This document shows positions 453 to 18,577 of a stretch of DNA of 20,195 nt, piece after piece. The stretch lies in IMG/VR virus record IMGVR_UViG_2529293241_000014. The stretch is one strand, 5' to 3'. The translations under genes and the position numbers were made by a program. The stretch comes from a virus (lineage: Duplodnaviria > Heunggongvirae > Uroviricota > Caudoviricetes). The first letter of the stretch is position 1; every line of letters begins with the position of its first letter. The notes under the pieces were generated by a model that did not search any database, was not told the origin of the DNA, and was given only the letters and a program-made list of their open reading frames with translations.

Positions 453-2183
453 TCAGGCTACCTCAACTCTCTTTTCAATAGGGTCAAGGTTTTTCATCCC
501 GCCAAGATCTTCTGCCACCTGTTTGAGCATTGACCTTGTTGATGGCGCATCAATTTTTGCACCTGCAGGCATCGCCTTTTCAACATTGCGATAAAGCTGG
601 TCGCTTCGTTTCATCAGCGCAGACATTCTTCCATTGACCGTATCAATAAACTTGTCGCTCATACCAAGAGCATCTTTTGCACCGGAAACGCGATCAATTA
701 TCTCACCCGCGCCCTGTGCTAGCTGCCTGATTGCTTCATTTTCCTGCACCTGTAGAGCAGAACCCGCACGGGACTTGATTGCTTGCTCAACTGCCTTGTA
801 TTGCTCGTTCCCGGAAAAGTGTGAAGGGAGTAATGAATCAACATTAAGCCTTTCAGCAGACTCCAGAACTTCAGCCTGAGGATTGATATCTAGTTCATCA
901 AGCGATGAAGCGAGATTTGGCCTTTTTTGTGCTGCTACTGTGCGAACGACTTCCTCTGGGTTCTTCGTCGCAGGCGTCATTGGTACACCTTGTGCTACTC
1001 TTGCCTCTGCGGCATGAACCGCAGGATTTGTTGCTGCAGCGGCATCACCGGAGAATGGTGATGTTTCTGTTGGCGCAGTGGTCGCTCTCTGTGCAGATGT
1101 TTTATTGCCACTAATTATATTTGATGCACCACGAACACCACGGGTAACGCCATTTATCAGGCCATGCGTAGCAATGCTAAGTCCGGCATTAATAGCGGCA
1201 TTTTCGGCAAAATCACCCCGTTGATTCGCCGCGTCAGCGAGAGAACCAATGACCATGTTTCCAGCTACACCTGCTCCAGGAACAAGATAACCGCCTATTG
1301 ACTCTCCAGCTTGCGCGTAGGGGTCTGTCGGTCTGTCTACTGGACGATAAACATCATCCAATACTTTTGGCCCCCCAAGCCCCTGACTGATTGCATTAAT
1401 CAGACTTGCGCCACCCTGCAATACGTCAAATGGTATGTTTACCAGACCACGACCAGCCTGTTCTGCAATTTGCCCTGCACTTTGACCACCAGTGAGCCAA
1501 TCGCCAGCTTGTTGCATCAATGATGGTTCTTCCCGTGTTGGTGCATTATTGGCCTGATTAACTGTTTGTTGCTGAACAGGTTTCGGTGCGACAGAACTTA
1601 CGGGTTGAGGTGGCTGCTGACTGGCTGCCTGCTGCTCAATCTGAGCAAATGGATTATTTGGGTCTGACTGCACACCTGATGCCGATACTTGTTCGGATGA
1701 CTGTACTTCCAGTTGTGCAAACGGGTTGTTAGGGTCTTGCTGAGGATGTACCTTTGCAGAGGTGGCGCGCTGTTCGACTGTTGAGTCTGTCACCGGGTCA
1801 CCAGCCCATTGAGCAAAGCGATCATCAACGTAACCGCGGCCTTCAGGTCCTGGCGTATATTCACCACGCTTTGCCTTCATAACGTTGCCGGGACCGTCGT
1901 GATAAGCCTGAAGAGAGTCACGCCAGTTACCAAACTGCTGGTACATCTTTGCCAGATAGCGCGCGCCAGCGTCAGCCTGATATTCGGGGTTTTGCATTTG
2001 CTCATCGGTATAACCCATATCACGCCATGTCCCAGGCATGACCTGAGTCAATCCTACAGCCCCGGCGGAGCTTACTGCGGCAGGGTTGTAAGAAGACTCC
2101 TTGGCACCCAGTGCAGTCATCAACCCTTCTGGCACACCGTAACGTGCGCCAGCCTGCTCTAACAAATCACGGTAATTAGCCAT
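453..2183 (-). CDS. Virion internal/ejection protein in the P22 gp16 position, with an N-terminal soluble lytic transglycosylase (SLT) domain
   Basis: 576-aa ORF, last gene of the structural operon, directly abutting the gp20-like gene. The N-terminus carries family-1 lytic transglycosylase motifs ([27 protein letters not shown]; AYHDGPGN). The central region is Q/P-rich with a tandem DPNNPFAQ repeat. Confidence 0.8.
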
Positions 2184-3515
2184 TTACTGCCCCAAAGATG
2201 GAAGATATCCGTAGCGATTAATGAAGTCGATTGACAGCTCGGGGTGCTGCTTCAGGTAATCTATAGAAGCCTGAGGCGCTTCCACTCGCTTGATACCGTT
2301 TTGCTGAACGTACTTACCAACCGCCTCATTACGCTTCTGGTTGAGCGTGTTCAGGATGACGCCAGCGTTGCGACGAAAGGACTCCTCGCTCTGCGAGTTC
2401 TGCAGCGAACCAACAGCCTGGTCGAGCTTTTTGCCCTCGGCATCAGAAAGTGCGCCCATGCCTCGCATGGCCTGAACCGCTGTCAGGTATGCTTGTGATT
2501 TAAAGGTATCAAGTCGTGCCTGAGTGTCTGCAGCCTGTGAGCCTGGAACGTTGGGGATTACTCCACGTAAGCCTGTAATGCTCTTAAGTGAAGGAGAACT
2601 AACGATATCGTTCAGAGTGAACATGCTGGTTGTGAGGGTGTTGATGCCGTCTTTGTAGCCATCATTTAGCGCTTGCTGCTTCTGCTGCAACTGCTGGTTG
2701 TTGGCTGCTATGCGGCTCTGTATTTCCTGGCGCTTCAGGTCGTTAGTTTCTGCTGATAGCATCCGGTCAAGGCGCTTATTTTCGTTGTTAATGCGGTTTG
2801 TTTCTGCGTCCAGATTAATGCGCTGCTGACCTAAATTCGCCTGGATATCTTGTCCGCGCATTGTGATTGCCTGATTCCGAGCGGCGGTTTGCGAATCCAG
2901 ATCCTGACCGCGCATGGTAACCTGGCGACCCTGCATTTTATCCTGTAGGTCAAAGTATTTTTCGGGCCCGAGACTGTTCATCCCCAGGTGATCGACAAAT
3001 TCGCCGAACTGCCGCGGGTTCTGTTGGTACATCTGAGCGACGTCATGAGGATTAACGCCAACACGAGCTAACTCACCGGCGTTGTTTTGCAGCCATGATT
3101 GCATTGCTTCTGGAGACGATGACGCAAGGCGTGCGCCAGCCGCTAAGGTGCCGATAGAATTACGCTGCTCTTCATCAATGAATCCCATGCCTTTACGAAC
3201 GGATTCAATCTGGTCTGGATATTGAGTAGCCAACTGACGCAAAGCACCGCGATCACCAGACGCATAAGCATTAGCGTACGCCTGCTGAAATTCTTTCTGC
3301 CGCTGAGCCTGCTTTTCCTGCTGAAAAACACCCGCAATACCTGAAAGACCTTGCAAAGCAGTCAGCCCAACATTGTTAGCGCCTGAACGCTCAATATCAT
3401 TGTTCTGCCTGATAAGCTGAAGCGTATTGCCGATGTCATTTACGCTCGGAGCGTTTGAGTTGACGCCGCCGATACCAGCCAACAATCCGCCGTTTGTTCC
3501 TTGCCAAGTAGCCAT
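2184..3515 (-). CDS. P22 gp20-like ejection (E) protein
   Basis: 443-aa ORF in the conserved position between the gp7-like and gp16-like genes. Q/N-rich coiled-coil-like composition typical of P22-like ejection proteins. Operon-packed, with stop adjacent to the next start. Confidence 0.8.
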   Translation of the reverse strand: MATWQGTNGGLLAGIGGVNSNAPSVNDIGNTLQLIRQNNDIERSGANNVGLTALQGLSGIAGVFQQEKQAQRQKEFQQAYANAYASGDRGALRQLATQYPDQIESVRKGMGFIDEEQRNSIGTLAAGARLASSSPEAMQSWLQNNAGELARVGVNPHDVAQMYQQNPRQFGEFVDHLGMNSLGPEKYFDLQDKMQGRQVTMRGQDLDSQTAARNQAITMRGQDIQANLGQQRINLDAETNRINNENKRLDRMLSAETNDLKRQEIQSRIAANNQQLQQKQQALNDGYKDGINTLTTSMFTLNDIVSSPSLKSITGLRGVIPNVPGSQAADTQARLDTFKSQAYLTAVQAMRGMGALSDAEGKKLDQAVGSLQNSQSEESFRRNAGVILNTLNQKRNEAVGKYVQQNGIKRVEAPQASIDYLKQHPELSIDFINRYGYLPSLGQ

Positions 3516-3524
3516 GATTCCCCC

Positions 3525-4217
3525 TTAAAACAACGAGCCAAGCAATCCGATACCAGCACCAATACCAGCGCCCCAAGGCGTTGATGTTCCCAAAAGGCTG
3601 GCAAGACCTGCACCGGCAATCGCACCAGACGTGCCACCGCTAATTGCAGTCTGAAGACTTGATGGTTTATTGGCATTAGCAGCGGCAAGAGCTGCGCTTT
3701 GCTGTGCAATGCTGCTCATGTTGTTGGCGTACGTCTGCCCGGCGTTTGCCTGACCTTGCAGCGCACCAAGCCCAACGTTTGCCAGATTGTTGTAATTGCT
3801 CATCTGATTTGATAACCAAGACTGACCGAGTGTCGGCGCGATCGTAGCCAGTTGATTGCTTGTGGCTGTCGAACCAAGTCCACCCGTCGCCTCCGCAGCA
3901 GCAAGACTCTGGTAACGCGCCTGCCCTGCAAGGTCTTTATACTGCTTAGAGTTGTAATACTGATTAAGTGCCTGCCCCTGACCTTCTAAACTGGAAAGGT
4001 TCTGAAGCTGGTTAACATACTGCTCCGCAAGAGGCGTGAACGGAGCAAGGTTTTTCATGATCGTCTGCCACTGCTGATTTTGCAGGTCTGCAGCATACTT
4101 CTGGGCTTCTGCTGCATACTTTGCGCTTTTATCAGAACTGCCACCTTTCCCGCCTTTTTCAGGGCAATAAGGTTCCTCGCCGCGCAGTTTTCTGCCCAGC
4201 TTAAATGCATATAACAT
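3525..4217 (-). CDS. P22 gp7-like ejection (E) protein
   Basis: 230-aa ORF; N-terminus MLYAFKLGRKLRGEEPYCPEKGGKGG... and a Gly/Ala-rich C-terminus resemble P22 gp7 as recalled. Conserved gene order. Confidence 0.8.
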   Translation of the reverse strand: MLYAFKLGRKLRGEEPYCPEKGGKGGSSDKSAKYAAEAQKYAADLQNQQWQTIMKNLAPFTPLAEQYVNQLQNLSSLEGQGQALNQYYNSKQYKDLAGQARYQSLAAAEATGGLGSTATSNQLATIAPTLGQSWLSNQMSNYNNLANVGLGALQGQANAGQTYANNMSSIAQQSAALAAANANKPSSLQTAISGGTSGAIAGAGLASLLGTSTPWGAGIGAGIGLLGSLF

Positions 4218-4219
4218 GG

Positions 4220-4678
4220 CTATCTCCCGTGATTCAGGAAGTCGATTAGTTCTTCGCGTGTGGCGCTGTAAAAAGTCACGTCATCCACGCCTTTGAAGTA
4301 TTTCTTGATGGTTCCTACACGCTTAAGGCCAATCATTGCGCAGTACATCTGACCGTGTCGGAATTTGCGTGCAGCGAACGATGTTACGCACTGAACGGTG
4401 GTGTTAGTCAGAATGTATCGCCAGAACGCCAGCCCAATTTCCTTGCTGAAGCCGCGAATCTCTGGCAGGTACATGGCGTGGCAATCTAATGTCAGCGGCT
4501 GAATCTCCTGATAGTAAACAATGCCGCCAAACTGACCGTGCACGTTCACCTCAAAGTAACGGCATTCAGGTTTGTAGTCGTATCCATCACCGTTGTTGCT
4601 CCCGGCGATAATGTCAGGGTGATTTCCGACTGCTTCTATCAGGTCGATGTTTCGCGTTGGTTTGAATGTAATCATCAC
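4220..4678 (-). CDS. P22 gp14-like virion assembly protein
   Basis: 152-aa ORF immediately downstream of the tail needle gene with an ATGA start/stop overlap. Position and size match the gp14 slot of P22-like phages; the sequence-level match is from memory only. Confidence 0.65.
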
Positions 4679-5523
4679 TGCTCCGCGATTATCTTGATGG
4701 TTGTGGCAGTAAACGCCGCACCATTCGACTGAATGGTTAACGTACTGCCATTTGTGGCAAGAAAGCCGTCTTTATCCACGCTGAAGAACGTAGCTAACAG
4801 GATGTTGTCGGTTGTTGTCGCCGCATTACGACTGCTGACCAGTGTGTCAGGAACAGAGCCGGAAAAGGTTAGCTGCATTGACCTGTTGGCGGTTCCGCTG
4901 GGCCACGTGCCGACAATCGACAACTTGAAGAGCAGGGTTTTGTTCTCGTTGAACACAACCATCTTGTTGTTAACGGTGTCGAAGAATGGTGCCAACGAGC
5001 CGGATGACGGTGTGAGCGTTTTCAGCAGGCTAACAAGGTTGGTCGGCGCTGTCGGGATGGTTACAGATACACCAGAGTAAACAACCTCTGACTTCTTGCG
5101 TGTGGTTGCATACTCCAGAGCATCGATGCGCGTTTCATGGTCTGAAACCTGCGACTCCAGCGACTGAACTCTTGTGTCAAGCGACGAAATATCGCTTTCA
5201 TTCTGAGCTATTCGTGTTTCATGGTCCTGAAGAGTTGATTCTGCCTGTCTGATTCGCTCCTCATGATTAACAAGCGTTGCTTCCGCAGCAGAAATTCGCT
5301 GCTCATGGTCAGCGAGAATCACATCCTGCTCATCGTTCCTGACCTGTGCATCATAAGCGCCCTGTCCGGCCTCGTTGGCTTTGTTAGCCACGTTACCAAC
5401 ATCAGTGCCCTGTGCGATAACGTAAAGCAGATACGACTGCGAGAAGATATTGCGTGGAAGGACTGATGTATCGAGCCGCGTAGCTTGGATGATTACCGGC
5501 ACATTGAGATTCGAATCAGCCAT
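4675..5523 (-). CDS. Tail needle (P22 gp26 family) with C-terminal knob domain (Sf6/HK620 type)
   Basis: 282-aa ORF. N-terminus [43 protein letters not shown] is the conserved gp26 N-terminal domain. It is followed by four DHExRI-like coiled-coil repeats and about 140 aa of non-coiled C-terminal domain, unlike the 233-aa knobless P22 needle. Confidence 0.85.
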
Positions 5524-6941
5524 TACTCAATCCTTATCTGAGCGCCAGACAGAGTGACAGGTGACTTCGTGATAACGCGCAATTTGAAGCCGACATTTTT
5601 CCTGATGCGCCCTACTCGCTTCCACAAAACACGCTTGTCGTAAACGAACGGTTCATTCTGCTCAATCATCTGCTCACGCCCGTAATTGATGCAGTCAGTG
5701 GTTGCAGAGAGAAAAAGGCGGTCGGCGTACTGCGCAACGCCAGTTGACGATTCAACCTCAAGGTCGAACACTCTGGCGTTATCCGCTTTGAAGAGTGGAG
5801 TAAACAGCAGGTGTTCCTGTTGCTTGTCGTACTGGCTGCTGATATCGAATTGCAGTTTCCCGGTAACAGATTCCAGCTTATCGCCGCACGTTATCTGATT
5901 GCCTTCGTAAACGAAGTCGATAGCGCGGTACACATCGTCATACAGACCTGTTTTCAGCACACACCATTGTGGGCCATTGGCGATTGAAGATGCGTCGTAC
6001 ACGAGGACGTGACGCGGAAGGTGGATAATCAGCAACTCATGAGCATCAAATCGCAGCGATTCCATCACACCATCAGCCAGTTCATCAGCAGTGTAGGAGC
6101 GGAGGATTTTCTCAATGCTCGCGCTGGCAATTGGTGACACCTGACCGGAGTCGATGATATACACAGACGGCGCACCCGTTGCCGGATTGCTGATAAACGC
6201 ATACGAATCAGCGAATGGCGTTTTGCAGTAAGTTCCGGCAATGCCTTTCTGCACCATCAGCGATGGTTGTGCAACATACAAAGCGGCACCAACGGTGGTT
6301 GCGCCAGTCAGGGAGAAATATTCAATAGTCGATGAACCAAAGCAGACGATGAAGTCTCGCCATGTCCCGATACCGATGATGCCGTCAGGCTGAGACTCGG
6401 CACGATATTGTGCGCTGTAACGGTCAGGATGAGATTCGTCTTCAAGGTCAGTGATAAACCATGAATCAGTTCCGTCTTTTGACCACGCATAACGCCCACG
6501 TAAGCGCGTAATGTCGCGAACTGAACCTAACTCATACTGAGTGAATCCACTGTCTGTAGGCCAGTTTGAGACGGTTTTGACCGTGCCATCATAGCGATAC
6601 TCGACCAGTTGACCATTAACGCCTACCGCCTGTGATGTCCGACCATGCGCCATTGATACACGACCACTTCCGGCAACATCACCGACTTCACTTTCTCCTT
6701 TGTACAGCTTGCCGCCACACACGCGATAAACAGCATTCTGCGCCATGTTGTACTCGACGCCGCGAGATACACCGTTCACGTCAGAACGTTTGGCAATGCC
6801 CGGGAATGAGCGAAGATATCCGCTGCTGTTCAGGATTTCTTTGGGTGTAGCCAGCATATTCACTGGCAGATAGTCGATATAGTCGGCGTTTCGGAAGTCT
6901 TTGCCGACACCTTTCATAAGCGGAAGTTGCTGAATAGGCAT
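5523..6941 (-). CDS. P22 gp10-like tail accessory (hub) protein
   Basis: 472-aa ORF, the same length as P22 gp10, in the conserved position between the gp4-like and needle genes. Confidence 0.85.
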
Positions 6942-7441
6942 TATTCGCTCCCGTTATCGCAAGGTTCCTTTCGGTGGAAGTAATTCCAACCATTCCACTT
7001 CGCCAACTGGTTACCACTACCAACAGGCATACGGTTTGGATAACCGGACTTACATTTAGCTGCTTTTGCCCTGTCCATTGCAGACAGTTTGACGAGTCGC
7101 TCTTTCCCGTATCTGGCAGTGGTTATAAGTTTTGCAGACGCTTCCAGCGCATAATCTGGAGCAATTCGGCAGGCAAGGTTGAAAATGACGGCATTGATAG
7201 CGTTATTTGATAAACCGTGCTCATCGCCCGGATCCGGAGCAACATCTGCATCAGCAAAAATGTAGCCAACGTTGATACCAGGTGACGCATCACCGCCAAG
7301 CCATTCAGCCATCATCATTTCAAGGTCGTTGACGCCGTCTTCCATAGACTGCGGTTCGACATCGGTTAACGTGGCATTTGATGCAACACCGAGCTTACGT
7401 AATGCCGCAAGAACTAAATCACCCTTCGTTGTCAGGTTCAT
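6941..7441 (-). CDS. P22 gp4-like tail adaptor/head-completion protein
   Basis: The track ORF runs to 7510, but the sequence from the internal Met ([33 protein letters not shown]...) aligns with the P22 gp4 N-terminus as recalled and gives 166 aa. The start at 7441 is therefore preferred. Confidence 0.8.
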
Positions 7442-7649
7442 CTGCTGCCGCCTTAGGTTTTCGACCAGGCTTTTTACGCTGTTTTTCTTCTGGCTCTGGC
7501 TCTGCAACATCCTTCAAAAGGTCATCAGGATGTGAAAACCAGCCAGCATCCAGATATTCCTGAAGCTCTTCGGCTTTCACGATTTCAAAGTCGTAGCCAA
7601 CGCCTTTCCACTTCTTCATGTCGCCATGACGAAAGATCATGTGTGTCAT
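7419..7649 (-). CDS. Small hypothetical virion-module protein (76 aa) between coat and gp4-like genes
   Basis: ORF from ATG at 7649 (GGAGA RBS 5 nt upstream) reading [38 protein letters not shown]..., with a charged tail [28 protein letters not shown]22 has no gene here; Sf6-type phages have a small gene 6 in this slot. Confidence 0.5.
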
Positions 7650-7693
7650 GCTTGTCTCCAGATAAAAACGGGAGCCGAAGCTCCCTCTGGTTA

Positions 7694-8989
7694 TCACGCG
7701 GTCTGGTTAGGCAGACCAACACCAATTGCCTCTGGTCGTACAGCACATGCTGAATACCACACAGCAATACGGCACTTACCAGACAGAGTGTTGATATCAC
7801 CCTGCGTTGCGAAGATGCCGTTAACACCAATACCTGGAATGCTGAAGGAAGACGTTTTCATGCCAGCAAACAGTTCATGGGTTACCGGGATCGGCTGAGA
7901 CAGCAGGCGGATTGAGTCATCAGCCCAGAACACGTTAGCGGTGGTTGTTGCCACGTTCAGAACGTTTACCGGAGTGGTATCAGCAAGAGAGGTGTTTACG
8001 TTAGCGTAAGCCTTCTCTTCTTTTGTCAGTGACGCGTCATCCAGCGCAATCGGCTTCGGCGTGATTTCGATGTGAGTACCATCGATCACACGGGTGATTG
8101 AGAAAGTCGCGTCATCAGTCAGCACATTCTTCGCCATCTGAGACAGGAACTTCACACCAATGAAGCTGATTTTGTCGCCGCGCTTAAATCCGGTGGTGGA
8201 GGATACGGTCACCGTTGCAACACGGTTGTCGACGTTCTCTTTGTTACCATCGGTATCAAGGGTGTATGCCTGCGGCTTAAACTTCTGCGCACCAGAAACA
8301 GTTACACCAGTCGCGGTTGACTTGGTAACTGCCGGAAGTTTCGGTGAGCGAAGAATTTCATCAAAGCCAGCAATCTGACGCTGAATAGTACCGTTTCGAT
8401 ATGCTTCTTCAGGAACGCGCCCGAAGATGTCACCATCTACCAGGTTGCGGCCTGCTTTGCGGTAATCGTCAGGGTTCAGGAAGTAACTGATGCCCATGTC
8501 GCGGTTTAGCTCACGGGAGAACATCAGTCGCTCTGCATCAGACACAAAATCCCAGCCAGGCAGGCCAGTCGATGGACCAATTGCGCGGGTATCGTGAACA
8601 ACAAGCGAGCCCATTTCAGTTGCCTGTTTGGCAATCGCTGACTCAATGTTATTCGCCAGTTTTTTGGCGGATGCCTGGATGCGGCGACGGTAAGAACGCT
8701 CATCACGCAGGTCATCTGCACGAAGCTCGAAGAAATCGTTATCCGGATCGCCCATGTTGCACTTCACGGAGAGTTCCAGAATCCCGGTTGCGTTGCCAGT
8801 TAAATCCCAGCCAGTCTGGGTTGGCGCTTCCTGCTCAACAGGCATCCACACGGTGTTGCTTGAACGCTGCATGGATTCTGCCGGAGGGGGGTATTTTGTC
8901 ACTTTTGACGCCATTGGCGTCAGGTTCTGGACGGTTCCGATGATTTCATCCAGAGCATACGTGACCAGTTGACCTTCATTTAATGCCAT
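7694..8989 (-). CDS. Major capsid (coat) protein, P22 gp5 family
   Basis: 431-aa [23 protein letters not shown]... ending ...[14 protein letters not shown]; collinear with P22 coat protein (430 aa) along its length as recalled. Confidence 0.95.
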
Positions 8990-9900
8990 TATCGAATTCC
9001 TTTATTCAGTTGCGCCTTGAGCTTGCGGTACGTCTCTACATCCCCTTTGTTTGCTGCCGCCTCCATCTGCTTTTCAATCGCAGAGATATTTGCAGCAACA
9101 GCATGTCCCTGAATGGGTTCATCAGGTAACGGGGCTTCTGAAACAGGCTTGGCTCGAGGCTTGAGAGTTAAACGTTCTGACAGTCGAGTGAGTTCAATCA
9201 GCGCGGATTGCCCGTCCATCGCCAGCAACTGGCGTGTTTTCTCAGGATTAGCACCAAGGTGATACATGAGAGCGGCGGATTTCTCCGGGAAGAGGCGCAT
9301 GATGTCGGCACCGACTGCTGGCGGCACCAGTTGCATGAATGCATCCTCTTTCTCCTGATAGTCAGGGATATTGAGCTTTTCCGCTGCCTCGTAGTGCTTA
9401 CGGGCCGCCTCGACGTATTGCGCTGATTGCTGGGTGAACTCCTGAGTTTTGCGACCCTGCTCGGCGACAGCCTGGCTTCGTGCGTCCATAGCCTTGATCT
9501 GCCATTCACTGTTTGCCTGCTGGAAGGCAGCCAGTGCGCGGCTCTGGTCATAGTCGTACTTAGCCAGTGCATCTTCGGAAAGATAATCGTTAGGGTCTGG
9601 TTGTTTTGGTAACTCAGGGTTCACCCGCAGGTGCTCCGGCAACTCTCCACGCTTAACCGCTTCCATCTGCTGCTCAAGCTCACGCTGGCGTTTGCGTTCG
9701 ATGCGGCGACGGGCAAATTCAGCATTAGTTGCCGGGTCTTGTTTTGGTTTCTCATCGTCTTTCCGGACAATCTCAAAGCCTTCTTCCTGACCTGCGCTGT
9801 CGTTGGCATTATCGACAACTAAGCCATCAGCAGATGCCGCTGCATGATTGCCGGGCAGGGTTAATTCTTCAGAAGCCTGAATGTCGGTGGTTTGGTCCAT
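8989..9900 (-). CDS. Scaffolding protein, P22 gp8 family
   Basis: 303-aa ORF, the same length as P22 gp8. Conserved blocks include [30 protein letters not shown] and the C-terminal coat-binding helix-turn-helix [19 protein letters not shown]. Confidence 0.92.
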
Positions 9901-9913
9901 GATTAACTCTCTC

Positions 9914-12079
9914 TTATTGAGGTGTCTCGGCTACTCCGCCGGAGGGGATTTGAACTTGACGCATAAGATTCGCGAAATCCATGCGTTGTGAATGAGTCTG
10001 GTCTGCATCTTTAAGAAGCAGCTCAGCGTTAGCACGAGCATCTTTGCTGCGCTGTTGCTGGAATTGACCTACGAGCCTGAGGTACTCACGCAGTTCTGCC
10101 TGCTTGTCGAGGTCCATATTGTTGAATATTTCTGCAATCTTCGCGGCGTTGAGTTGGTTTTGGGCTTCAACCTTGGCAGCTTCAACCTGAATCTGCGCCT
10201 GTTGGTTCTCTGCCTTGAGCAATTCAGCCTGACCTTGCAGAAGGATACCCTGCGCCTGAATTTGCTCTGCTGATGGCTGCTGCGGCTGTTGTTGTGCCTG
10301 CTGCACCATCTCCATCTCTTCAGGTGTTTCTGGTTTCTTCAGCCCCATCATCACCAGTTGCTTGTTCGCGTACTCTCGCATCATCTCGACGCCTTTACCG
10401 TCAAGCAGCGTGAAGTATTGCAGCATCAGCATCTGGAACTCTGGAGTACCTTGCGGAACCTTGGTGAGCAACTCCTGAATCTCTGCGCGGTTCTGTTCCT
10501 TCATACTCTGGAAGGATGGCCCAACGTCTGTATAGCACTCATATCGACCGCGAATGTCGTTGAGTGTGACCACATTGCCGGACTGGTAATCGACAACTTG
10601 CGCATAGAGTTGAACGTCTTTCTCGCTTCCATCTTCAAGTGTCAGCGTTACATGACGAGGAACGTCATAAATATCGTTGACCATTGAGGCATAAATCTCG
10701 CCATCACGTCGCATTGCGGTAGCCAGGTTATCCTGAAACACGTATGTCTCAAGGTCTGCCCGCATGTTCAGTTGATTGACGGTATCAAAAGCGACCTGAC
10801 CATTTGCCGCCTGCGCATCCACGCCAAGACTAGCCACTTCTTTCACTGCGTTGGTGGCAGCCTCAAGCATGTAAGCGTTGGCTTGCGGCACTTCAGGGTT
10901 TTCCATGTAGGAGATTGGACCAATCGGCAGGTCGTTACCGTTTTCATCAGTCCTGTTCTGCAGATAGTACGGATAGTCATCATTTCCGCCGTACATGTAT
11001 TCGTAGCCTTCGATTTGCTCAGGGAAGAAGGTCGGTTTCTTCTTCGGTGACCGAGCAACAATATCGGCGTTGAACGACATAATCATGTTACGAAGGCGTT
11101 GACCGTCTTTCGTCAGCCTTACCACACCCTCGTAGCACTCCTTGTCACCAGCGAATGACCATTCGCCATACACTGGAACGATTGGAATATGCTCTCCGGC
11201 TATCTTCTCGCGGTCTTTCAGTATCTGCGTACAGGTGATGATCGACTTATACACACGCCGACGCTTCACCTTGCGCTCTGCTACCTTAATGAATCCACGA
11301 TTAGCCAGGTCGTCGATGACGTCTTTGATATCCTGCTGGTAATAGCTGACCGGCTCACCTGTCAGCGGGTCGCGGTAGATGAAGACCTTCTCCTTCTCCT
11401 CTTCTACCTCGTAATACTCAGCGACGTAGACGACATCATTCGACACCCACGGGAATAGCCATGTATCGTTAGGATTCTGGAAAGATGGCAGGGTATCCGG
11501 GTCAATACCGTAATCCTCTGCGAACTCTTTCCAGCCATTGCGCGACAAGGCGTTAATCACCGTGCAGTGCTTAGCGTCGCTCTTATCCATCTGCTTGCTG
11601 TTGGCGTCCCATATGACGTGTGAGCAGGCTTCATGGATTGGCAGGCGTCGGATTACCTGATTGTTGCTTGTTGGATCGTTGTCTTCGTACTGCGTGACCA
11701 GACGCCATGCACCAACGCCTGACTCTATCTGCTCACGAACGCCAACGTTAACGGCAATCTTTGCCGTGTTATGGCGCATATCAGTACGATACATCCCCAT
11801 CAATACATCGGCTGCATCAGGATTAGCGCCGTCTTTGGGTCGGAAGAGAACGTCGACAGGGTTCCGGCGCATCTCTGCGACCAGTTTCCTGACCTCCGGG
11901 CGAACAACATCGAATTGTCCGCGATATTGCAGGGTAGTGTAGTTTGATAGCCAGTCATCCCATTGCGACACTCGGCTAAAATACAGGTCATTTGTCGCCT
12001 CGGTTCTGGCTTCATCGCTCGCCATCCAGTCTGCGTCAAACTTACACAGAATGGAATTGAGTCTGTTTTCGTCGGCCAT
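9914..12079 (-). CDS. Portal protein, P22 gp1 family
   Basis: 721-aa [21 protein letters not shown]...; long collinear similarity to the P22 portal, including the Q-rich C-terminal barrel region ending SGGVAETPQ. Confidence 0.95.
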
Positions 12080-13120: not shown

Positions 13121-13192
13121 TGAAGTGGCACACTGAATTTGGCCACCTGAACAGAGGTGATATGCTCACCTCAGAACAACACAGGTGCTCCA

Positions 13193-14361
<1,169 letters not shown>

Positions 14362-14369
14362 CCACTTCA

Positions 14370-14765
14370 AATACACTGAGCGATTACGCTGTATTGGTCC
14401 CTGAGAGACTTGAGGCAATCTTGGACCGAGCCGCTCAACGCGCAGGTCATGAGGATATTAGTGAGCTATTGGGCTGCACTGTATGCAGCTATGCGGGCGA
14501 TGATACAGGTATCTATCTCCTGCCTAAGCGGTTCGCTTCTATCTCTTTCAGGTCAACTAAAGACGCTAAGACGGTAGATGTCAAAGTGACCCGAAATAGT
14601 AACACTGCTGGGTATGACCTTGAGTTAATCAGTGTGGTCGATGTGTTGGCTACTGGTTCCGTTAAGGTGAAAGCAGGTGAGTTTGACGTTGAGAAAGACG
14701 CCTCTTTCCCGTTGATACATGTTATTCGGTTTACTACCCCCAGAGTAACTATAAACCCTGAGTGA
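14370..14765 (+). pseudogene. Orphan 3' fragment (about 132 codons) of an unknown gene, fused to the IS911 copy 1 IRR
   Basis: The frame is open from inside the IS through to the TGA at 14763-14765 and contains no ATG. Protein-like composition (...LGCTVCSYAGDDTGIYLLPKRF...KVTRNSNTAGYDLELISVVDVLATGSVKVKAGEFDVEKD...). I do not recognise the family. Confidence 0.35.
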
Positions 14766-14782
14766 ACATAAGGAGTACATCC

Positions 14783-14854
14783 ATGAGCTTACAGGAGTTG
14801 TTTGAGCTCGTCCTCTGTGTCCACTTGGTCTGCCAGATGCTCTACAGGGAGTGA
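14783..14854 (+). CDS. Candidate 23-aa small ORF (MSLQELFELVLCVHLVCQMLYRE)
   Basis: ATG at 14783 lies 7 nt after a consensus AAGGAG (14770-14775), immediately downstream of the fragment's stop. The product is short and hydrophobic. Support is RBS geometry only. Confidence 0.2.
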   Translation: MSLQELFELVLCVHLVCQMLYRE

Positions 14855-15287
14855 TAGATAATAACAATCAGCAGTATGCCCGCAATAGCTATTGCTCTGG
14901 TGCTTACAGGTCTTCACTTTGCGGTCGGTGGGGGCTAGTGGCGGTAGGTTATGACCTTGTATTAAAAAAATCTCACAAAAATCTCTGTAGGTATCTAATA
15001 GACAAAGGTCGGTGCCTCTCCCCCCTTGGCCCCTTTCAAGTCTGGACGATTGGGGCCACTGTCTTAAAGTTAGGACTTCGGTTACTCGTTCCAGAGTCAC
15101 GAGAGGACTTGACCAGAGATAAATTAATGTGTAACCATAACTGTAACCACAAGGATTCATCATCCTTTAGGAAGCAAATGGTTAGCGGCTGATTATCTTC
15201 GATACCTCGATTCCCGCTGCCCGCTCCAGTTAGAGTCTTTCAGTCTGCGATGATGGGAAATCCCGGAGTGACTGAAAGACGTTTAAG

Positions 15288-15359
15288 TTATGAATGATCG
15301 CTTTTTTTGCAAAATTGCTGTGCAGAAATACTAACCTTCGGGCAGGCGATCATTCATAA
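15288..15359 (+). promoter_or_regulatory. Perfect 14-bp inverted repeat (TTATGAATGATCGC ... GCGATCATTCATAA) with 44-nt spacer, upstream of the lysis cassette
   Basis: Arms at 15288-15301 and 15346-15359 are exact reverse complements. The spacer contains TTGCAA-N16-TACTAA, a weak sigma70-like pair. The position fits the late-promoter/leader region of a lambdoid late operon. Confidence 0.4.
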
Positions 15360-15433
15360 GCACTCTGCTTTTATTCCGATTAACTGTGGGTGGTTTGTTG
15401 GATAGAGTGCTTCCCTTACTGTATATATCGTTT

Positions 15434-15459
15434 CGCCCGCTTTTGCGGGTTTTTCTTTT
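15434..15459 (+). terminator. Rho-independent terminator-like hairpin (candidate tR'-like site), 60 nt upstream of the holin
   Basis: CGCCCGC-TTTT-GCGGGT followed by TTTTCTTTT: GC-rich stem, 4-nt loop and a U-run on the plus strand. Confidence 0.55.
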
Positions 15460-15519
15460 CAAATCCCTTTCATTTCTCAGTGTAAAACTACGCCATCCGT
15501 TATTTGCGGAGGTGAGGCT

Positions 15520-15735
15520 ATGAAATCCATGGACAAAATTTCAACGGGCATTGCCTACGGCACCTCCTCAGGCAGTGCTGGCTACTGGTTTTTACAGTGG
15601 CTTGATCAGGTCAGTCCGTCACAGTGGGCTGCGATTGGTGTACTGGGGAGTCTGGTTCTGGGCTTCCTGACTTATCTGACAAATCTGTACTTCAAAATCA
15701 GAGAAGACAAGCGTAAGGCTGCACGGGGAGAGTAA
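15520..15735 (+). CDS. S: Pinholin, phage 21 S21 type (class II holin with dual-start MKSM motif)
   Basis: 71 aa, [71 protein letters not shown]; near-identical to S21 as recalled. GGAGG RBS at 15507-15511. Met1/Met4 dual start is consistent with holin/antiholin products. Confidence 0.95.
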
Positions 15736-15739
15736 TTCA

Positions 15740-16054
15740 ATGACACAAAAATATGAACTGATTGTGAAAGGGATCCGCAATTTTGAGAATAAAGTTACGG
15801 TAACTTTAGCGTTACGGGACAAAAAACGCTTTGACGGTGAAATTTTTGACCTGGACATCTCGCTGGACCGTGTTGAAGGTGCCGCGCTGGAGTTTTATGA
15901 GGCAGCAGCCAGAAGGAGCATCAGACAGGTCTTCCTGGATGTTGCTGCCGGGTTATGTGAAGGGGACGAGCTGTTGCCAGAAACGCGCCCCTGTTCAGAG
16001 GCGCGGTATACCATAAAAATTAACAGTTCTGATAACTCGATTACGGGTTGTTAG
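15740..16054 (+). CDS. Conserved hypothetical protein of lambdoid lysis cassettes (YdfR-like; DUF1327 by recollection)
   Basis: 104-aa ORF starting 5 nt after the holin stop and ending 55 nt before the endolysin start. The same holin-ORF-endolysin arrangement is recalled from the E. coli K-12 Qin prophage (essQ-ydfR-rrrQ). Hydrophilic, no TM segment. Confidence 0.75.
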   Translation: MTQKYELIVKGIRNFENKVTVTLALRDKKRFDGEIFDLDISLDRVEGAALEFYEAAARRSIRQVFLDVAAGLCEGDELLPETRPCSEARYTIKINSSDNSITGC

Positions 16055-16109
16055 CTTTTTGCAGTTAGCTTTCCAGTATCTTTCATTGGTAGCATCCTGA
16101 TAAATATCC

Positions 16110-16643
16110 ATGAGCGCAAAAATCAAATACGGCCTGTCAGCTGCTGTTCTGGCGCTGATTGCTGCAGGCGCGTCTGCTCCTCAAATACTTGACCAGTTTC
16201 TGGATGAAAAAGAGGGTAACCACACTACGGCATACCGCGATGGTTCCGGTATATGGACCATCTGTCGTGGTGCCACAATGGTGGATGGTAAGCCCGTCAT
16301 ACCGGGAATGAAGCTGTCGAAGGAAAAATGCGACCAGGTTAACGCTATTGAACGTGATAAGGCGCTGGCATGGGTGGAGCGCAATATTAAAGTACCACTG
16401 ACCGAACCACAGAAAGCGGGTATAGCGTCATTTTGTCCCTATAACATTGGCCCAGGTAAGTGTTTCCCGTCGACGTTTTATAAGCGGCTGAATGCCGGTG
16501 ATCGTAAGGGCGCATGCGAGGCGATTCGCTGGTGGATAAAAGATGGTGGGCGCGATTGCCGCATACGTTCAAATAACTGCTATGGACAGGTTATTCGTCG
16601 TGACCAGGAAAGCGCATTAGCCTGTTGGGGGATAGATCAGTGA
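16110..16643 (+). CDS. R: SAR (signal-anchor-release) endolysin, T4-lysozyme-like muramidase
   Basis: 177 aa with a weakly hydrophobic Ala/Gly-rich N-terminal segment (YGLSAAVLALIAAGASAP) and the catalytic E-8aa-D-5aa-T triad (EGNHTTAYRDGSGIWT). Pairs naturally with a pinholin. Confidence 0.9.
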   Translation: MSAKIKYGLSAAVLALIAAGASAPQILDQFLDEKEGNHTTAYRDGSGIWTICRGATMVDGKPVIPGMKLSKEKCDQVNAIERDKALAWVERNIKVPLTEPQKAGIASFCPYNIGPGKCFPSTFYKRLNAGDRKGACEAIRWWIKDGGRDCRIRSNNCYGQVIRRDQESALACWGIDQ

Positions 16644-16648
16644 GCTGA

Positions 16649-17107
16649 GTCGCCGCGATTATTTATGCTCTGGTTATCTGCATCATCGTCTGCCTGTCGT
16701 GGGCGGTCAATCATTACCGTGATAACGCCATCGCCTACAAAGAACAGCGTGATAAAAAAGTCAGTGAGCTGAAGCTGGCGACCGCCACCATTACTGACAT
16801 GCAGCAACGCCAGCGTGCTGCTGATGTACTCGATGCTAAATACACGAAGGAGTTGGCTGATGCGAAAGCTGAAAATGATGCTCTTCGGCGCAAGCTTGAT
16901 AATGGTGGCCGGGTGCTCGTCAAAGGAAAATGCTCTGTGCCATCCTCAGCCGAAACCTCCAGCGCCTCCGGCATGGGCAATGATGCCACCGTCGAACTCT
17001 CTCCAGTTGCTGGACGAAACGTTCTCGGTATCCGGGACGGAATCATCAGAGACCAGACAGCACTGAGAACGCTTCAGGAATATATCAGGACGCAATGCCT
17101 TCGATGA
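16649..17107 (+). CDS. Rz: Rz-like i-spanin (lambda Rz family); canonical start disrupted, start uncertain
   Basis: Frame encodes (V)[35 protein letters not shown]...[20 protein letters not shown]...TQCLR, collinear with lambda Rz. The lambda-type start overlapping the endolysin stop reads GTG AGC TGA (16640-16648), an in-frame stop at codon 3. The next in-frame ATG is at 16799, downstream of the TM segment. Confidence 0.6.
16860..17066 (+). CDS. Rz1: Rz1-like o-spanin (outer-membrane lipoprotein) embedded in the +1 frame of Rz
   Basis: [46 protein letters not shown]...: signal peptide, VAGC lipobox and proline-rich mature part, fully nested inside Rz as in lambda. Confidence 0.75.
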
Positions 17108-17304: not shown

Positions 17305-17331
17305 ATTGCAACAAAGGTAAAGATGAAGTGG

Positions 17332-18500
<1,169 letters not shown>

Positions 18501-18577
18501 TGGAGCACCTGTGTTGTTCTGAGGTGAGCATATCACCTCTGTTCAGGTGGCCAAATTCAGTGTGCCACTTCAAGACG

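Follow-up and report, generated by a model that had tools for sequence, protein, structure and literature searches.

A Three-Hairpin RNA Element Between the tRNA Genes and Lysis Genes of Lambdoid Prophages: A Candidate tRNA-Operon Trailer

Introduction

Structured non-coding RNAs have been described both from bacterial tRNA operons and from the genomes of bacteriophages, and they provide the background for the element considered here, a series of three consecutive hairpins (H1, H2, and H3) upstream of the holin gene in a 20,195-nt stretch of Caudoviricetes DNA (IMG/VR record IMGVR_UViG_2529293241_000014; this whole stretch is referred to below as the window). In Escherichia coli, the 3′ external transcribed spacer of the glyW-cysT-leuZ operon (3′ETS-leuZ) is reportedly a processed trailer that acts as a sponge for small RNAs (sRNAs). 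Like 3′ETS-leuZ, the element comes immediately 3′ of the final tRNA in what appears to be an operon with its own promoter, ends at an intrinsic terminator, and would be freed by the normal 3′ maturation of the tRNA. Unlike 3′ETS-leuZ, it is phage-borne and far longer (three hairpins, ~185 nt plus the terminator), and BLAST of the element gave no sign of sequence similarity between the two. Species 1 and species 2 of phage T4 (rnaC and rnaD) are stable, structured non-coding RNAs of the T4 tRNA cluster that remain functionally opaque. The element is likewise co-located, and is proposed to be co-transcribed, with a phage tRNA array; compared by description, it differs from the T4 RNAs in belonging to an unrelated type of phage, the temperate lambdoid phages, in standing at the boundary of the lysis cassette, and in being followed by terminators.

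The late leader of lambdoid phages offers further points of comparison. With the region that comprises the late promoter pR′, the Q-utilisation site (qut), the 6S RNA, and the terminator tR′, the element shares a position between Q and the lysis genes and the presence of an intrinsic terminator, but it stands apart from Q, lacks a credible promoter, and is independent of the Q family. It has tandem conserved stem-loops upstream of terminators in a lambdoid transcript, as do the put sites of phage HK022, and differs from these in size and position, in yielding no covariance-model match, and in occurring in phages that encode Q. The anti-sRNAs AgvB and AsxR of enterohaemorrhagic E. coli are Hfq-bound RNAs of 51-60 nt that form convergent pairs 3′ of pR′ and have a conserved 3′ region (Tree et al., 2014; PMC4104026). 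The element occupies the same “moron” niche 3′ of pR′ in lambdoid prophages and is distinguished by its linkage to tRNAs and by being three to four times longer; Rfam searches of the region gave no sRNA-family match above chance (the presence of AgvB and AsxR models in Rfam was not checked).

This article presents the evidence that a 14-bp inverted repeat in the window forms the base of H2 in a modular H1-H2-H3 RNA of ~185 nt, which, with moderate confidence, we read as the 3′ trailer of a tRNA operon that lambdoid prophages carry in the “moron” site. The fold, its conservation and covariation, its plus-strand polarity, and the genomic architecture around it can be seen directly in the sequences compared. 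If transcribed as proposed, the element represents a family of structured RNAs that is undescribed yet fairly widespread, found in about one tenth of complete E. coli genomes, in several other enteric genera, and in the sequenced phages HK639, phi467, and PhiR47_1. It occupies a key regulatory junction of lambdoid phages, at which a tRNA operon meets the lysis genes. It would add to the few non-coding RNAs described from the “moron” site downstream of pR′, and it would make the trailer RNAs of phage tRNA operons accessible to testing.

A Conserved Plus-Strand RNA Fold

The original prediction, which was made from the window alone, described a perfect 14-bp inverted repeat with a 44-nt spacer in the leader of the holin gene, and this description is accurate. 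The arms, TTATGAATGATCGC (15288-15301) and GCGATCATTCATAA (15346-15359), are 14 nt each and 100% complementary; they form the longest local inverted repeat of the whole 20-kb window, and only 0.3% of simulations under a first-order Markov model based on the window produced a perfect repeat of 14 nt whose loop did not exceed 80 nt. Two features had escaped notice, namely that the repeat has a further hairpin on either side, making three in a row, and that positions 15207-15228 upstream of them are the 3′ end of a tRNA-Gly gene. On the plus strand, the 234 nt at 15229-15462, which comprise the three hairpins and a terminator (Table 1), fold with a predicted energy of -80.9 kcal/mol (z = -5.5 against dinucleotide shuffles), as compared with only -61.3 kcal/mol on the minus strand.

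Conservation of this fold was assessed in two alignments, A2 with 36 distinct H2+H3 sequences and A3 with 28 distinct H1 sequences. RNAalifold returned the same fold from A2, in which 97.6% of cells are standard pairs, against 34-50% when the partners are slid by 1-3 columns, and 84 cells show double changes, against 33 ± 5 in shuffles. The corresponding values for A3 are 96.6% paired against 40-49% slid, and 21 double-change cells against 8.7 shuffled. In the basal stem of H2, 5 of the 13 pairs have changed on both sides (e.g., U-A to A-U and G-C to U-A), and three adjacent basal pairs of H3 covary (U-A to C-G, C-G to U-A, and C-G to U-A, in 14-15 sequences). The HK639 copy, 77% identical to that of the window, carries compensatory changes in all three stems, with A-U to U-A and U-A to G-C in H2 together with one G-U and one A.C. 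Several positions are fixed or frequent G-U pairs; because these would be A.C mismatches on the opposite strand, the plus strand is taken to be the functional one, and this is also the strand of the tRNAs and the lysis genes. The compensatory and G-U changes together support the view of the element as a plus-strand RNA fold. For the repeat itself, two natures had been suggested, the operator of a dimeric protein or a long RNA stem-loop in the late leader. A dimer operator is unlikely in view of half-sites that are 44 bp apart, which is atypical of such operators, and of arms that change yet stay complementary, whereas substitutions that keep the plus-strand stem paired bear out the RNA stem-loop. 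The repeat has also proved to be conserved, H2 being kept across the 36 distinct sequences and upstream of several types and classes of holin.

Within H2, the basal stem carries an inner hairpin, formed in the window by UUUUUGCA and UGCAGAAA (UUUUUGCA/UGYRRAAA across relatives) around the nearly invariant loop AAAUUGCUG, and a second small hairpin that reads CC-UUCG-GG in the window and CC-UUYG-GG across relatives. The block TTTTTGCAAAATTGCTGTG is nearly invariant in the 36 sequences. A T-run in H2 (15302-15308 in the window) ranges from 6 to 9 T among otherwise near-identical copies. A conserved micro-open reading frame through H2 (MNDRFFCKIAV.../MGAAFCKIAV) was considered and rejected, since the varying length of this run (6-9 nt) among close relatives throws it out of frame and a ribosome-binding site is lacking; the element has no conserved reading frame.

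The internal loop of H1 has the form GC-GAU-GA-UGGG opposite CCCG-GA-GU, with a bulge that varies between GAU and GAA and with G24, A25, and A39 of the G.A/A.G core invariant in the 28-sequence alignment. We take this loop, from its sequence pattern, to fit the kink-turn consensus of a C-stem, a 3-nt bulge, tandem sheared G.A/A.G pairs, and an NC-stem. In H3, the 3′ strand of the upper stem, GGGUGGUUUGUUGGAU, is GU-rich and nearly invariant, and its partner strand varies. H3 and the 3′ arm of H2 have two A residues in common.

The hairpins are separable modules, of which H2 is the most constant. H1 is optional, being absent from some relatives in which H2 abuts the tRNA directly, and the first stem, whether H1 or H2, always starts 1-2 nt past the CCA of the final tRNA. 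One IMG/VR phage (L160) has H1 and H2 followed directly by a terminator, with no H3 at that place and with a single H3 copy ~1.1 kb further upstream. This solitary copy (L160 5567-5634) has an extended stem and stands beside a 1050-aa reading frame on the minus strand (2261-5413) of the late-leader region, the N-terminal sequence of which looks like that of a metallophosphoesterase.

Genomic Context in Intact Relatives

Phage PhiR47_1 and E. coli SMS-3-5 both carry, in this order, Q, tRNA-Met/Ile, tRNA-Lys, tRNA-Thr, tRNA-Gly, ~290 bp of non-coding DNA that contain the element, holin S, YdfR, lysozyme, and Rz. Homology between the window and the sequenced phages and E. coli prophages with near-identical copies (see the section on distribution) starts exactly at position 15207, inside an annotated tRNA-Gly in every record. 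SMS-3-5 (locus L002) has a promoter-like sequence, TTGCAA-17-TATATT (L002 3502-3530), that overlaps the end of Q and is followed by a terminator (3582-3605), the two being what is expected of a pR′/tR′ pair. A second promoter-like site, TTGCAA-17-TATTAT (L002 3675-3703), ends ~10 nt ahead of the first tRNA. In more than 50 distinct upstream sequences, the features retained by this tRNA promoter are a -35 of TTGCA, a spacing of 17 nt, a -10 of TATTAT or TATCAT, and a GC-rich discriminator, while the flanks diverge. The architecture of the site (L002 3675-3712 and equivalents) resembles that of stable-RNA promoters under stringent control.

Related loci show the common order Q, promoter and terminator, tRNA promoter, tRNA array, element, one or more terminators, and lysis genes. 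On these sequence grounds, we read the tRNA cluster as an autonomous operon situated in the “moron” site between pR′/tR′ and the lysis genes, and the element as the 3′ trailer of this operon, with the hairpin at 15435-15460 as its terminator. Relatives thus show the layout of a trailer, in which the element follows directly on the last tRNA of an operon that has a separate promoter, and the terminator of that operon closes it.

The tRNA array is usually Met(CAU)-X-Thr(UGU)-Gly(UCC) (e.g., L001 3713-4022, L126, L008, L131, and L135). The anticodon of tRNA X is hypervariable, including Lys(UUU), Arg(UCU), Phe(AAA/GAA), Leu(UAA), and a suppressor-like UUA, and several of these tRNAs have aberrant anticodon loops and are left unnamed by ARAGORN. 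Arrays with a hypervariable X resemble tRNA cassettes thought to counter anticodon nucleases.

In HK639 (locus L003) the element lies between Q and a different holin, after tRNA-Asn and a degenerate tRNA-Gly, and a terminator that is not homologous to that of the window then follows; another terminator (L003 2805-2829) comes directly after Q. The degenerate tRNA-Gly (L003 2912-2991) retains an intact anticodon loop and 3′ half, has a mutated 5′ acceptor strand, and is not called by ARAGORN. The leader from Q to the holin gene is ~950 nt long in this phage and has four annotated terminators. Two other arrangements were considered and rejected. One places the element inside a tRNA operon, as a candidate case in L144, where two terminators follow it and a separate second tRNA pair lies ~350 nt further on. 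The other would have it close an integrated unit that is flanked by a duplication of the tRNA 3′ end; neither L002 nor the window contains the 22-mer (15207-15228) a second time.

The comparison with intact relatives bears directly on the function assigned by the original prediction, which saw in this region a late promoter with a Q-utilisation site and tR′. The proposed weak promoter, TTGCAA (15307-15312), a 16-nt spacer, and TACTAA (15329-15334), exists as a motif and lies inside H2. As a promoter it fails, because its -10-like hexamer lacks the final T, and a promoter scan returned no sigma-70-like site in 14300-16200; the hexamer ends in A in all 36 variants (TACTAA, TACTGA, TACCAA, and TGCTGA). 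In relatives, a better promoter and a terminator stand directly behind Q, and the element lies 500-1300 bp past the Q stop codon, beyond the tRNA operon. A Q-utilisation site is not indicated either: the same element follows Q proteins of at least three unrelated Pfam families (PF03589, PF06323, and PF06530/DUF1133) and is thus not a Q-specific site.

The Terminator

The terminator hairpin that had been proposed just upstream of the holin gene is real, with a stem of six pairs (five of them G-C), a 4-nt loop, and a T-run that qualify it as an intrinsic terminator. Its identification as tR′ does not stand, as it is better read as the terminator of the tRNA operon and is one of several in the late leader. 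By a strict rule, one or two terminators are found 7-36 nt past H3 in 46 of 68 distinct downstream contexts, and most of the other contexts are E. coli copies of the same hairpin in a weakened state. Roughly six of the 68 (L023, L053, L080, L124, L135, and L142) have no recognizable terminator within 110 nt. Between the two main clades the terminators are non-homologous in sequence, so that it is the position of the terminator that is conserved and not its sequence. This placement fits a role in ending transcripts from the tRNA promoter ahead of the holin gene.

In weakened copies (e.g., L010, L012, and L114), G-to-T changes at the boundary of stem and T-run lead from GCGGGTTTTT to GCGGTTTTTT to GCGTTTTTTT. 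Such erosion of the stem suggests that the barrier before the holin gene may be leaky to a variable degree.

Distribution and Database Comparisons

Positions 15207-15520 of the window are 98-100% identical to phages PhiR47_1, phi467, vB_EcoS-689R5, and vB_EcoM-606R7 and, within the same range, to prophages of 522 complete E. coli genomes. A more sensitive search of 5426 complete E. coli genomes located the element in 536, on the chromosome in every case, and BLAST placed it at prophage loci only, with a median of one place per genome. In IMG/VR, two pattern scans found at least 146 loci with 83 distinct variants. The element also occurs in Shigella, Enterobacter, Citrobacter, Yokenella, and Phytobacter. 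A degenerate pattern scan of one genome per species gave chiefly chance matches, and eight loci in six enterobacterial species were confirmed by the model.

No described RNA family accounts for the element. Rfam 15 gave no match at the gathering threshold over the whole window, and a permissive search of 14800-15600 gave chance-level matches only (E of at least 1, 12-16 bits), with no ribozyme, tRNA-like RNA, 6S RNA, or sRNA family among them. RefSeq has nothing annotated under the element, and a full-text literature search with sequence strings, HK639, lambdoid tRNA arrays, and prophage 3′ETS RNAs found no description of it. The RNA family is therefore apparently undescribed. A resemblance to GcvB was considered and rejected; it amounted to a single common 9-mer, GTCTGCGAT, where ~0.17 were expected, with no antisense 9-mer.

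Proposed Role and Alternative Explanations

In an intact phage, the RNA would be co-transcribed with the tRNAs, constitutively, from the sigma-70 promoter (TTGCA-17-TATTAT/TATCAT with the GC-rich discriminator) where this is present, and in lytic growth it would also be made from pR′ by Q-modified polymerase. Maturation of the tRNAs would free its 5′ end 1-2 nt past the CCA of the last tRNA, and the intrinsic terminator would set its 3′ end when Q is not acting. In the lysogen, the terminator would thereby bar transcription that starts at the tRNA promoter from the holin gene, whereas Q-modified polymerase would read through. The released RNA of ~230 nt should be nuclease-resistant, and hence stable, by virtue of its tight hairpins. 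The nearly invariant UUUUUGCAAAAUUGCUGUG and GGGUGGUUUGUUGG and the kink-turn core would be the recognition surfaces for a putative partner; near-invariance in loop and strand sequences argues for sequence-specific recognition by a protein or an RNA, beyond mere resistance to nucleases.

Several observations weigh against this picture. The covariation is drawn from few clades, which implies few independent events, and the shuffle control overstates significance for related sequences. H2 and H3 occur apart in L160, so that the hairpins may be independent modules and not one RNA domain. A separate tRNA promoter would not fit into HK639, and in some phages the RNA could therefore come from pR′ alone. 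Because some contexts (~6 of 68) are terminator-free and many E. coli copies of the terminator are weakened, an insulating role of the terminator is not universal; the same exceptions mean that the structured RNA is more than an accessory of the terminator. Finally, the transcription, processing, and stability of the RNA, and any action in trans, are matters that we infer.

The main rival is a purely cis-acting element for processing or stability with no role in trans, which we hold to be rather unlikely. After RNase P and RNase E had excised the tRNAs from the Q-dependent late transcript, the hairpins would cap the mRNA at its newly made 5′ end, where they would shield the lysis and morphogenesis message from 5′-end-dependent decay by RNase E, would keep 3′ exonucleases off the tRNA precursor, or both. 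In its favour are the constant distance of the first stem from the tRNA CCA, irrespective of whether that stem is H1 or H2, the late-leader position that the element has in every context, and the terminator-free relatives, in which the RNA would stay joined to the downstream mRNA. A nuclease barrier, however, needs stable stems only, and it leaves unexplained the nearly invariant 19-nt loop and strand block, the GU-rich strand of H3 with its varying partner, and the kink-turn core.

A more far-reaching proposal, tentative and in our estimate distinctly unlikely, is that H1-H2-H3 is a new class of phage structured non-coding RNA that acts in trans and travels with anti-defence-like tRNA arrays. 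It may in that case serve as a decoy or inhibitor of a host nuclease that targets tRNAs or of a host RNA-binding protein, or as a regulatory RNA or sponge by way of the GU-rich strand and the loop. If this were true, ~10% of E. coli genomes would hold prophages that constitutively express an uncharacterized effector RNA.

That the element is a functionless, decayed relic, made up of degenerate tRNA genes or of boundary sequence that hitch-hikes with the tRNA-Gly module, is very unlikely. A tRNA or tRNA remnant always adjoins it, pseudo-tRNAs stand beside it in HK639 and L144, and in the window the element itself is clearly a remnant. Neither ARAGORN nor Rfam finds tRNA-like features in it, however, and 97% pairing has been kept through ~25% divergence, with compensatory changes and nearly invariant loops, in six genera.

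Highly improbable as well is a put-like processive antiterminator, in which the nascent hairpins would bind RNA polymerase and carry it past the following terminators in the manner of putL and putR of HK022. Two adjacent conserved stem-loops do stand just before one or more terminators, and HK639, which bears the element, is a relative of HK022 in which early antitermination is said to be RNA-mediated too. Against this, the H2+H3 covariance model, run on the whole HK022 genome with filters off, found nothing (best E = 1.3), and an identity with the put RNA was rejected. The put RNAs are ~70 nt long and lie just downstream of early promoters (PMC9378689), as opposed to a core of ~130 nt for H2+H3 in the late leader. 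All the phages concerned already encode Q, and constitutive read-through from the tRNA promoter into the holin gene would be lethal for a lysogen.

The region as pR′ and qut, with the hairpin as tR′ and the repeat as an operator or a part of qut, deserves next to no credence, for the promoter-like motif, the genuine terminator, and the position upstream of the holin gene that speak for it are outweighed by the failed promoter scan, the distance from Q, the diversity of Q families, and arms that covary, G-U pairs included, to keep pairing.

An Orphaned Copy in the Window

The tRNA-operon trailer, as we read it, is present in the window without the operon. The window has no Q gene, as the original prediction had stated, and no complete tRNA was found in it. 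Where Q, pR′, the tRNA promoter, and the phage tRNAs would be expected, it has the right end of a genomic island (Table 1), which in other E. coli is integrated at the chromosomal tRNA-Gly next to a site-specific integrase. Throughout its length, the stretch 14362-15229 matches, at ~90% identity, a segment of an island in E. coli 21AR0133 that has a hypothetical gene upstream and a site-specific integrase downstream, and the last 122 nt of the island stretch recur in strain JSMCR1 at the far end of an island that adjoins the chromosomal tRNA-Gly and an integrase. The genomic island has apparently recombined with a prophage-borne tRNA-Gly gene at its 3′ end, 15207-15228 probably being the att core of this recombination.

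Table 1. Features of the window discussed in the text.
Feature	Coordinates	Strand	Remarks
IS3-family insertion sequence (IS), left copy	13121..14369	+	99.9% identical to IS in Shigella flexneri SFBU1023; open reading frames (ORFs) of 112 and 279 aa
glyU-type integrative genomic island, right end	14362..15206	+	Replaces phage tRNA array, tRNA promoter, pR′, and Q
Phage tRNA-Gly(UCC), last 22 nt (T-arm, acceptor 3′ strand, CCA)	15207..15228	+	Identical to 3′ end of annotated or ARAGORN-called tRNA-Gly of PhiR47_1 and SMS-3-5
H1	15230..15286	+	11-bp perfect stem 15235-15245/15270-15280; kink-turn-like internal loop
H2	15288..15359	+	14-bp repeat as basal stem of Y-shaped domain
H3	15358..15412	+	9-bp perfect basal stem 15358-15366/15404-15412, plus upper stem
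Intrinsic terminator	15435..15460	+	GCCCGC-TTTT-GCGGGT at 15435-15450, then TTTTTCTTTT; ~60 nt before holin start codon
Class II holin (phage 21 S-type)	15520..15735	+	Pfam PF04971, E 4.8e-35
YdfR/DUF1327 protein	15740..16054	+	Pfam PF07041
Endolysin (RrrQ-like lysozyme)	16110..16643	+	Pfam PF00959; annotated rrrQ in relatives
Rz spanin fragment	16799..17107	+	Pfam PF03245, profile positions 26-125 of 126 only; IS copy starts at 17323
Same IS, inverted second copy	17323..18576	-	ORFs mirrored on minus strand

Both IS copies are 99.8-99.9% identical to the Shigella flexneri IS, and the island end, the element, and the lysis cassette all lie between them. To their left, a P22/Sf6-like morphogenesis module (453-12079; portal, scaffold, coat, tail needle, and ejection proteins) runs on the minus strand. 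The opposed strands of this module and the lysis cassette are what an inversion of ~3 kb between the two IS copies would give, an event that would have disrupted the late operon.

Recombination with the island and the IS elements would between them have removed the tRNAs, both promoters, and Q from the window, and the loss of Q, pR′, the tRNA promoter, and the tRNAs leaves the element and the lysis cassette cut off from their control signals. Both are probably silent here. The silence of late expression that the original prediction had entertained is thus retained as probable; its alternative, a rescue by Q supplied in trans, is not, because pR′ and the qut site are absent as well. For the window, these findings have chiefly annotation value, in that its lysis cassette is to be regarded as a disconnected remnant.

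Two minor features concern the holin gene that follows the element. Its product starts with MKSM (15520-15531), a Met1/Met4 dual start typical of the pinholin/antiholin pairs of phage 21 S. Weak inverted repeats at 15505-15514 and 15561-15570 overlap its ribosome-binding site.

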